A stretch of 64,000 nucleotides of DNA from a virus (taxonomy: Duplodnaviria; Heunggongvirae; Uroviricota; Caudoviricetes), in IMG/VR virus record IMGVR_UViG_3300045597_000172. One strand, given 5' to 3'. This document shows, piece by piece, positions 61,922 to 64,000 of the stretch (positions are counted from its first letter, which is position 1; the number at the start of each line of letters is the position of its first letter). A model generated the notes under the pieces. That model was not told the origin of the DNA, ran no database searches, and saw only the letters and a list, made by a program, of their open reading frames with translations. Made by a program: the position numbers and the translations under genes.

Positions 61922-63082
61922 TTAAACTTCATCCCACAACTGAGCAACTAAATCATCATACTTACCATCCAAAATATCTTTCCAAGATGGAAGTTGTGAT
62001 AAATATTTCAGCCAAGTATCCTGTACAGTCACTTTAAAAGCATCCTCAGACTCATTGCCGCCACTCATTAAACTATCTAAGCCATCTTCACCAAAATCTT
62101 CCTTAGCGTCGTTTAACGTATCAGCAGAGCCTTTGACCATGATCTGTCCACCAACAACTAAGTTATTATGATCATCAACCTTGAAATCCGGTGAGGCTTT
62201 GAAATCATCAAGTAACTTAACATACGCCTCACCTAACACTTCACGAGTCGTATCATCAACTTCAAACAACAAATCATGCTTAGAAATTTTCTGATGAGCA
62301 TAAATTTTCTCACTAATCGCATTCGCTTTAGCATCTTGCGTTTGTTGTGCCTGAATAACTTCATGGTTAACTTCCGCAGTATCATTTAAGCCCTTTTCAA
62401 TTTCGTCCTTTGTCTGGAATTGATCATCAGAATAATCTTGATTTTCAACTGCCACTTCACCAACTTCATCCTGAAAAGCAATCTGTTCATTAATTGAACG
62501 CATTAACTCTTGCGATAACGCTTCAGGATCAATCCGTGACAAGTCATCATCCGTCAAAGTATGTCCATTGACTTTATTATTCTGCTTATACAAATTCAAT
62601 TTTTTAGCTGTTAACCGAGCTTGTTTAACCCGCTTTGCAACCATTTCAACAAAGTTTGGTTGGTTATTTAAAATATCAAAGTCCATCGTGTTAGCAGTTG
62701 TCGGAACAGTCCGTAACGTATATTCTTTAGGATCTTCGAAATTTTTCAAAGCATTTTTATGAACCGACATAAACGAGTAAGGCATTGACAATTGGTTTTT
62801 ATCCCAAATAGGATTTCCTTTACCAAAGACCATTAAATTACCTTTATTAACCCGCAACATATCGTTTTTAGATATAACAGGAACTTCTTTTGCAGTCCGG
62901 TTAGTTGACAATTTACCATCGGTTCGGTTAATTGTCTTATACATATCAGTCGAAATCGTCTGACTATCTTTTTCAAGACGGTGCATCTGTCCGGAAAGAC
63001 CCTGCAAAATTTCAAGCATTGAATCATCCGTTGACTTGATATAAATAATATTACCTGTGTTACCTTGCAAAATTTTATCGAT
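61922..63082 (-). CDS. virD4: VirD4/TraG coupling protein, 3' exon
   Basis: IDKILQGNTGNIIYIKSTDDSMLEILQGLSG continues the TraG C-terminal domain; in-frame TAA at 63092-63094 upstream. Confidence 0.75.
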   Translation of the reverse strand: MDKILQGNTGNIIYIKSTDDSMLEILQGLSGQMHRLEKDSQTISTDMYKTINRTDGKLSTNRTAKEVPVISKNDMLRVNKGNLMVFGKGNPIWDKNQLSMPYSFMSVHKNALKNFEDPKEYTLRTVPTTANTMDFDILNNQPNFVEMVAKRVKQARLTAKKLNLYKQNNKVNGHTLTDDDLSRIDPEALSQELMRSINEQIAFQDEVGEVAVENQDYSDDQFQTKDEIEKGLNDTAEVNHEVIQAQQTQDAKANAISEKIYAHQKISKHDLLFEVDDTTREVLGEAYVKLLDDFKASPDFKVDDHNNLVVGGQIMVKGSADTLNDAKEDFGEDGLDSLMSGGNESEDAFKVTVQDTWLKYLSQLPSWKDILDGKYDDLVAQLWDEV

Positions 63083-63602
63083 CGAATCGTTTTATTTATT
63101 AATTACTGAGATATTCAGAAAGTTGTGAAATTATTTTTCGTTTATTAGCAAAAGTTCTATTAAACAACTAAATCTAACATCTCAGTTTCTTAAAATTTCA
63201 CGTAATCGTAACTTACGCTCTGCTAATGCAGCACTCTCATTACAAGACGTGACTGACTATATGTCAAAGTCGGTATCCCGGCCCCACCTATTTTTCGCGC
63301 ATGCCATAAACTTGCACCGCTAACGAGGACGCCATCCTCTAGTCGATGAACGTTATCCGGTAAATTAATTACTACGGACATTCGTAACCATACAGACCCT
63401 TTTTAATAACAACTTAGAACAGTAAATACTGCTTTTATTTCATCATATTGTCATCCGAACAATTTTTTCTGCTTTCGCACCGTCACGCTTGTCGTTTCCA
63501 ACTACGTTGTGGACATTCGGCTTTAAGGTCTTTCGAGGTATTAAACTGGTGTTGGTACTCACCCATTACAGATAAGCAGAGGTTCTTTTATAATAAGATA
63601 AA
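63083..63602 (-). ncRNA. group I self-splicing intron (IA-like, about 520 nt, no ORF) inside virD4
   Basis: R element UCAUCGACUA (63340-63349), S element UGACAUAUAGUC (63255-63266), P7 GACUA/UAGUC, P3 CACCAGUU/AAUAGGUG, P7.1 GAGGA/UCCUC; removing 520 nt restores the frame; boundaries uncertain by 5 nt. Confidence 0.8.
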
Positions 63603-64000
63603 ATTTTCTCCATAAATATCTTTAAGTTGTTGAAGTGTTTGTAATATCAATGTGAAGAACTGACCCTGAGCCAAACCAATAGATTCCTTGGTTTGTAAAT
63701 CAGGAATACCAGAACCATCAGAACTAAGATTACCAACTTCATCCAACATATACTTTGTCTTATATAACGGTTTCTGTGACGCTAACGTTAAATAAGATCG
63801 ATCAACCTGCATATTAAACATCTGGTTAATCAAAATCAAAATAATTCTTGAATATGACTTCAAATGCGGTGGCGTAATAAAATCAACATAAACCGGTTCT
63901 TCCGTATAATGCACTTGAATCTGTTCAAACAACAGTGCGTTATACGCTTCGATTTCACCAACACTACCGGCACGATTACCTGCATCTTCAAGCAAGCTAA
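63603..64000 (-). CDS. virD4: VirD4/TraG coupling protein, upstream exon (5'-truncated by window)
   Basis: Walker B YMLDEVGNL, FTLILQTLQQLKDIYGE; frame open to window end. Confidence 0.85.

Follow-up and report, generated by a model that had tools for sequence, protein, structure and literature searches.

A probable subgroup IA-type group I intron, related to phage introns, in the coupling-ATPase gene of a giant plasmid-like element

Most known group I introns of bacteria reside in tRNA, rRNA and phage genes. The Ll.LtrB intron, which interrupts the ltrB relaxase gene, is a group II intron with lariat chemistry and retrohoming, and the IStrons of Clostridia are group I introns fused to an IS605-type transposase. 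In this study, we analyzed a 520-nt insertion in the gene of a type IV coupling protein (T4CP) of the VirD4/TraG family, located on the minus strand of a 64,000-nt stretch of DNA assigned to the Caudoviricetes (IMG/VR virus record IMGVR_UViG_3300045597_000172), which is referred to below as the window. A group I intron interrupting this virD4 gene had previously been proposed from inspection of the sequence (the original prediction), and no published group I intron in a T4CP gene was found in the open literature searched.

Several described systems are relevant for comparison. The intron I2 of phage Twort belongs to subgroup IA2 and its structure has been solved (PMC1891724). Biochemistry of the Tetrahymena ribozyme treats the U·G pair at the 5' splice site as conserved and required, its replacement by a Watson-Crick pair weakening docking about 80-fold, and in the solved ribozymes the wobble pair is contacted by J5/4 (PMC1891724). 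The RNA polymerase gene of phages AR9/PBS1 carries a group I intron along with a group II intron that encodes an endonuclease (Merk, Jones and Eddy 2025, PMC12350094), and the class of homing-endonuclease group II open reading frames (ORFs) was described for phages in 2025 in a survey that set conjugative-element scaffolds aside (PMC12350094). In Staphylococcus phage vB_Sau_CG (L001:2444-2774; L numbers denote loci of our collection), we observed an ORF-less group I intron of ~330 nt with a free-standing nuclease gene downstream; in the record of this phage a 'tail tube protein' is annotated in truncated form, and neither the intron nor the second exon has an annotation.

The interrupted gene and the group I architecture of the insert

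The break in the T4CP frame lies where it had been described. The upstream frame ends ...LILQTLQQLKDIYGEN (..LQQLKDIYGEN) and runs into FILL and a stop codon, and 520 nt further on a second frame of 386 codons picks up with (DS)IDKILQGNTGN and stops at 61922. The tblastn matches were 1286-1412-aa proteins of the 'type IV secretory system conjugative DNA transfer family' from plasmids of Staphylococcus, Gordonia, Rhodococcus and Streptomyces, and three full-length homologues (encoded on plasmids of Staphylococcus, Gordonia and Streptomyces) align gaplessly over the break (...LQQLRDVYGESVDKIVQGN; ..LQTLQQLRDVYGESVDKIVQGN..). Therefore, precisely 520 nt have to be removed, with boundaries that can slide by no more than 6 nt, and both joins offered in the original prediction do take out this length. 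Pfam analysis of the in-window exon upstream of the break detected PF12696 (TraG-D_C, 24.6 bits) and PF02534 (T4SS-DNA_transf, 21.1 bits), the latter also matching the gene piece further upstream, and the VirD4-type Walker A and B motifs TRAGKGQT and MLDEVGN are present in the translations. Judged by these matches, the interrupted gene is that of a VirD4/TraG-family coupling ATPase with a predicted length of ~1270 aa, and the insertion falls in its most conserved motif (..LQTLQQLKDxYG/DSIDKILQGN..). The sequence is 100% identical in three assemblies (JGI 3300044212 and the Logan assemblies of SRR16379729 and SRR35178714), one of which is a 107-kb contig.

Architecture, homology and covariation identify the insert as a genuine group I intron, which together with the Pfam matches of the exons supports the original prediction. 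All helices of the group I core were placed (Table 1), comprising P3-P8 with the P3/P7 pseudoknot, the P4-P6 domain and the R and S elements forming P7, and the core elements and the sequence block listed in that prediction are present at the mapped coordinates. P7.1 and P7.2 lie between P7 and the 3' strand of P3, the arrangement of subgroup IA (IA2-like). Introns of related T4CP genes occupy either site a, after ..YG as in the window, or site b, ~17 nt upstream and before DVYG; a G stands ahead of the 3' exon (omega-G) in every one of the eight site-a introns, and likewise in those at site b. A first fold with GACCUU/AAGGGUC as P4 was discarded, the family alignment having shown that helix to be P5. 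The insert has only ORFs of 39-55 aa, which overlie ribozyme helices, and no endonuclease ORF is among them, as had been stated earlier.

Homology to phage introns was detected by blastn, with nt 71-182 of the intron matching unannotated gaps of 42 phage genomes, including sites by an 'intron-encoded nuclease' in Kayvirus and within the split DNA polymerase III alpha gene of Lactococcus phage AM1. At the DNA level the best match (82% over 93 nt) was to Clostridium phage c-st, whose copy (L002) adjoins insertion sequence (IS) genes OrfA/OrfB, as in an IStron. A degenerate pattern of the common block retrieved 26 viral and 29 genomic loci; Epulopiscium and Clostridia account for many of these. 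At most of the loci the block is followed at a distance of ~105-185 nt by the R element, with the S element 40-110 nt beyond that. The exon-2 protein, used as a query for related loci in metagenome and viral collections, gave no match; a protein search yielded 14 homologues, most of ~360-420 aa and thus likewise cut off. The contigs of these homologues, and nine more found with a clade-specific pattern, bear introns 62-75% identical to that of the window.

Covariation was analyzed in two sets of introns. RNAalifold, applied to 13 compact family members, none of them from coupling-protein genes, recovered P3, P4, P5, P5a-c, P6, P6a, P7.1, P7.2 and P8, with compensatory change in 38 of 60 pairs and with P7 crossing P3 as expected. 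In an alignment of 13 coupling-gene introns with the window intron as reference, 95.9% of the 72 pairs counted were canonical and double-sided changes occurred in 44; neither value was attained by any of 500 shuffles, and slid controls reached 32-42% canonical pairs and 7-14 double-sided changes. The relatives show covariation in P2-P6a, P7.1, P7.2, P8 and P9, with P7 invariant. P3, for instance, reads CACC/GGUG in the window, CAGC/GCUG in L067 and CAUG/CAUG in L065, and P4 is a perfect 6-bp helix in eight relatives; the introns of L070 and L079 are examples with an intact P4. A family covariance model of the 3' core (R1), built from 16 members from unrelated hosts, matched the 64-kb window at a single place, 63249-63352 (-).

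Table 1. Mapped features of the T4CP gene and its group I intron in the window
Feature	Position	Strand	Remark
5' exon, middle T4CP piece	63608-64000	-	runs past window end; ends ...UAU GGA G
Exon strand of P1, UGGAG	63608-63612	-	last 5 nt of 5' exon
Predicted group I intron, 520 nt, ORF-less	63088-63607	-	starts AAAAUUUUAU, ends ...AAAUAAAACG; omega-G at 63088
Internal guide sequence GAAC|CUCU(G)	63577-63585	-	abuts P2 on 5' side; covaries in 8 introns
P2 hairpin	63557-63577	-	GUAAU loop
P3 5' strand CACC	63548-63551	-	pairs GGUG at 63285-63288; pseudoknot with P7
P4-P5 domain	63387-63539	-	P4 ACCUCG/UAUGGU (two internal mismatches in sublineage); P5 GACCUU/AGGGUC
P5a-c extension	63455-63520	-	block common to phage introns
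CACAACGUA..AAGCGUGA..GCGAAAGCAGAAAAAA block	63463-63512	-	
P5d hairpin	63406-63454	-	
P6/P6a	63350-63385	-	
Catalytic 3' core	63253-63345	-	includes J8/7
R element UUCAUCGACUA	63340-63349	-	
P7 5' strand CGACUA	63340-63345	-	
P7.1	63325-63339	-	covaries
P7.2	63297-63320	-	covaries
P3 3' strand	63285-63288	-	
P8	63267-63284	-	
S element ACAUAUAGUC	63254-63264	-	
P7 3' strand UAGUCAG	63253-63259	-	
P9 and peripheral P9 extensions	63089-63251	-	P9 itself 63232-63251, GUAA-type loop
3' exon, C-terminal T4CP piece	61922-63087	-	begins AU UCG AUC GAU AAA (..DSIDKILQGN..); stop codon 61922-61924

Position of the splice junction and the case for a functional ribozyme

The original prediction had left two joins, a 'canonical' one (63603/63082) with U at the exon end and G at the intron end, and one shifted by 5 nt that gives YGDSIDK; it had also suggested a comparison with intron-less alleles. 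Such alleles at site a read GGN GAY UCN/AGC, encoding DVYGDSIDK in L073 and L065 and DVYGDSVDK in L076. The eight site-a introns agree in having UGGNG at the end of the 5' exon, G as the last intron base and AYNN at the start of the 3' exon. The 8 nt directly 5' of P2 form a guide sequence that is complementary to the exons once ligated and, across these eight introns, covaries with the flanks on both sides; in the window, CUCUG pairs with UGGAG of the 5' exon (P1) and GAA(C) with (A)UUC of the 3' exon (P10). P1 occurs as GGAG/CUCU, GGUG/CACU, GGCG/CGCU and GGAG/CUCC, and P10 as AUUC/GAAU, AUUC/GAGU, ACAG/CUGU and ACUC/GAGU, with the guide following the wobble base of the Gly codon (A-U, U-A, C-G). 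The assignment of the intron to 63088-63607 (-), with YGDSIDK as the predicted product and a junction 5 bases off the textbook position, is thus well supported by the uninterrupted alleles and the guide covariation, and the shifted join of the two is the one that stood.

Splicing of the same intron at the textbook sites, with a 5' exon ending ..GAA AAU, an intron at 63083-63602 ending ..UUCG and the product YGENIDK, is very improbable, although in the window sequence this exon does end in U and the intron in G, the product has the length of the homologues, and the Glu after YG parallels the YGES of distant homologues. No guide pairs with ..GAAAAU, and the sole G between the splice site and P2 would need, by inspection, an exon end GAGGUUU. 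The G of this join is the wobble base of the Ser codon, being G, U or C in the eight introns of site a and, in the uninterrupted allele of L065, A, so that the intron would end in U in L067/L069 and L070 and in C in L074a, where the exon would also end in C. The 5 nt AUUCN that separate the two joins vary solely at this Ser wobble, and they are exonic in the uninterrupted L073 and L065.

Other placements were tried and rejected. A junction shifted by -4 gives the same mRNA in some copies but is impossible in L070 (GGAGC..), and with a shift of -6 the intron would end in C or U and lose its terminal G. A P1 for the canonical join made of AAAU and G57UUU puts P2 in the P1 loop and conflicts with the family alignment. 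A 9-bp hairpin of intron nt 6-14 with 33-41 places a U·G pair 13 nt into the intron and would add FILL to the conserved motif.

At the preferred junction (YGDSI), each of the eight site-a introns has a 5' exon ending in a G that pairs with a guide C (63581 in the window), and a U·G wobble at the splice site is not found. The sole U·G pair in P1 lies at its far end, between the third U of the Tyr codon and the first G of P2. In the site-b introns the 5' exon ends in A or G. J5/4 (window 63393-63394) consists of 2 nt, UG/AG, in the coupling-gene clade, versus 3 nt, NAA, in the wider family, and this change accompanies the apparent loss, in the clade, of a U·G wobble pair from the 5' splice site. 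The same reasoning was applied to the Kayvirus tail-tube intron, the junction of which was checked against the intron-less phage SAP23 (exon end ..GCCAAU, intron end AAGUG with omega-G, 3' exon AACUAU..); we take the U at the end of its 5' exon to pair with the G in the GUUG next to P2. The approach thus returns the textbook U for the Kayvirus intron and therefore carries no bias against the canonical solution. From the eight introns we infer that cleavage would take place at a Watson-Crick G-C pair rather than at U·G. It also seems somewhat more probable than otherwise that the near-universal U·G was lost throughout the clade in the hot spot of coupling-ATPase genes, with replacement by a purine-pyrimidine Watson-Crick pair (G-C at site a, A-U/G-C at site b) and a concurrent change of J5/4.

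In the proposed mechanism, the pre-mRNA would fold so that the 8-nt guide 5' of P2 aligns the exon ends (P1 UGGAG/CUCUG; P10 (A)UUC/GAA(C)), and free guanosine held in P7 would attack after GGAG. The terminal G of the intron (63088) would then take the place of the guanosine, and the exons would be ligated to UAU GGA GAU UCG AUC (YGDSI). The ligated product would read ..UAUGGAG followed by AUUCGAUC, and cDNA across the junction would read GGAGAUUCG. For a full-length protein, a group II intron that interrupts the same gene ~1 kb upstream would have to be removed as well. Splicing would thus be needed for the full-length protein, whereas the regulatory checkpoint of the original prediction is pure speculation.

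We consider it highly probable that window positions 63088-63607 (-) constitute an ORF-less, subgroup-IA-type group I intron, related to those of Twort and Kayvirus, in the T4CP gene of a giant plasmid-like element, and that its splicing would be guide-directed to YGDSI. Several observations weigh against this reading. Rfam cmscan of 4 kb and of 700 nt returned no group I match even at E<=10. The R1 match is weak (15.8 bits, E 0.15); being consistent with the model but not decisive, it was not used as main evidence. P4 of the window intron contains two internal mismatches (U·U and C·A), common to L067, L069 and L074a, P3 is just 4 bp long, and a C·A mismatch is present in P8; the weakness of P4 is the main hint of possible decay in the window copy. 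The predicted 5' splice site has no U·G wobble, and therefore either the junction or the assumed efficient self-splicing could be wrong. Finally, the window copy has no endonuclease gene and may therefore be immobile.

The original prediction had treated the lack of spliced cDNA and of a covariance-model match as the mark of a degenerate insertion. The Rfam result at the locus was indeed negative, yet it is uninformative, because RF00028 was silent on three phage relatives (Kayvirus, AM1 and c-st) as well, one of them the verified Kayvirus intron. RF00028 scored above its gathering threshold (54 bits) on an upstream intron of L073 (L073:413-792), which is also the top match of the family model (40 bits). 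The silence of Rfam, along with the IS OrfA/OrfB genes that adjoin the closest DNA match in c-st, would fit another structured insertion that merely resembles group I (an IStron remnant, a miniature inverted-repeat transposable element or a regulatory RNA). Such an origin is extremely improbable: no transposase, terminal repeats or second copy are present in the window, the insertion is precise relative to the empty alleles, the guide is complementary to both exon flanks, and the full P1-P10 architecture is in place.

An inactive ribozyme, or one dependent on an absent host factor, is a more serious alternative but still an unlikely one; the gene would then be a pseudogene or encode separate N- and C-terminal polypeptides. 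The weakened P4, the short P3, the missing U·G wobble and the missing endonuclease ORF all agree with it, as does the TTG-started 382-aa ORF of the 3' piece. Against this, both exons hold long open frames that are 100% identical in the three independent assemblies, the helices are kept by compensatory change at 62-75% identity (P7 being invariant), and the P4 variant is common to the independently diverged L067 and L074a; moreover, the break lies inside a conserved ATPase motif, where function as two chains would be unlikely. The group I intron of the window is accordingly regarded as most likely functional on comparative grounds, and we infer that it is spliced in vivo.

The intron hot spot, the second intron and the genomic context

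At least one intron was present in nine of nine close relatives examined, within a hot spot of ~25 codons of the T4CP motif (L073:2469-2983; L065, L071, L072 and L076 are among the loci). A few codons upstream of sites a and b lies a third site, which holds a group II intron. L074 (545-2014) is occupied at all three sites, with a 12-nt exon, AUGUUUAUGGAG, between its two group I introns. Homing-endonuclease ORFs were found in the introns of two scanned relatives, and more group I introns were observed upstream in the T4CP regions of relatives (L073:413-792, L067:2649-2744 and L069:1659-1780).

In the P9 periphery of the window intron, an AU-rich hairpin of 82 nt with a perfect stem (63105-63186 (-)) is missing from all relatives; it occupies the spot at which L069, L079 and L083 carry endonuclease genes, and may represent either the scar of a deletion or a small inserted sequence. 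A repeat search of the window detected no second copy of the intron or of this hairpin. Downstream of the c-st copy (L002) lie IS OrfA/OrfB and a RAGATH-18 RNA (61 bits). Single-cell assemblies of Epulopiscium (Candidatus Epulonipiscium; L036-L062) contain many copies of the intron family, frequently at the ends of contigs; this suggests a multi-copy element, perhaps IStron-like.

The group II intron of the same T4CP gene, on the same strand, is 2742 nt long (L007:1216-3957) and lies ~564-3305 nt past the window end at 64000. It was recognized by Rfam models (group-II-D1D4-5, 101 bits; domain 5/6, 60 bits), has the termini GUGCG..CUAU, and its exons join in frame (..TIAS/VYGISL..). Its ORF of 684 aa is a CapR/DUF4379/DUF723/DUF7487-type homing endonuclease, not a reverse transcriptase, with a methyltransferase-like C-terminal half (DPFSGWG .. 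TCPPY); the relative L065 has the endonuclease part alone (325 aa).

No VirB4 or relaxase was found among the 20 large window ORFs scanned, and the host is therefore termed a giant plasmid-like element with a T4CP gene. Genes for phage-like metabolism (NrdD, ATP-dependent ligase, two DNA methyltransferases, non-specific endonuclease and DHH phosphoesterase) and for envelope functions (class A penicillin-binding protein, glycosyltransferase, rhomboid, LysM and lysozyme-NlpC/P60 hydrolase) are spread over window positions 5467-31730 (+) and 32369-58520 (-).

Significance and comparison with known systems

The intron extends the range of a known phage-type family to a new class of host gene, the coupling-ATPase genes of giant plasmid-like elements. 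As the original prediction foresaw, gene callers cut the T4CP gene, here into ORFs of 319 and 382 aa. Automatic annotation splits such genes into 'hypothetical' pieces, and therefore T4CP genes and transfer capacity are under-called. The eight independent introns consistently predict, with backing from covariation, a 5' splice site that has no U·G; if true, this would be a natural counter-example to the rule behind 35 years of ribozyme biochemistry, and cleavage-site choice could be studied in these introns. With three insertion sites (two for group I and one for group II introns) in ~25 codons, the locus also offers a case for studying homing into conserved motifs.

Like Ll.LtrB, the intron lies in a DNA-transfer gene, the full-length product of which depends on splicing, although Ll.LtrB is a group II and the present one a group I intron. 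With IStrons it shares its best nucleotide match, the c-st copy by IS OrfA/OrfB and a RAGATH-18 RNA, but it has no IS module and is inserted in frame in a conserved coding motif. The AR9/PBS1 polymerase gene resembles the T4CP gene in combining introns of group I and of group II in one gene, with a group II ORF of the CapR/DUF4379/DUF723 type that is not a reverse transcriptase; in contrast, the host gene here encodes the coupling ATPase of a plasmid-like element, and the group II ORF has an extra methyltransferase-like C-terminal half. In architecture the window intron resembles the Twort orf142 and Kayvirus tail-tube introns (subgroup IA2), which also have P2 with a GUAA loop, a guide abutting P2, the R/S core and omega-G, and the P4-P5 extension block of the Kayvirus intron is homologous (74% identity over 112 nt). 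The host genes of these introns are phage structural or replication genes rather than a T4CP gene, the Kayvirus 5' exon ends in the canonical U as opposed to the G-C of the window intron, the Kayvirus copy has no P7.1/P7.2, and J5/4 is UG/AG here as against NAA in the wider family.
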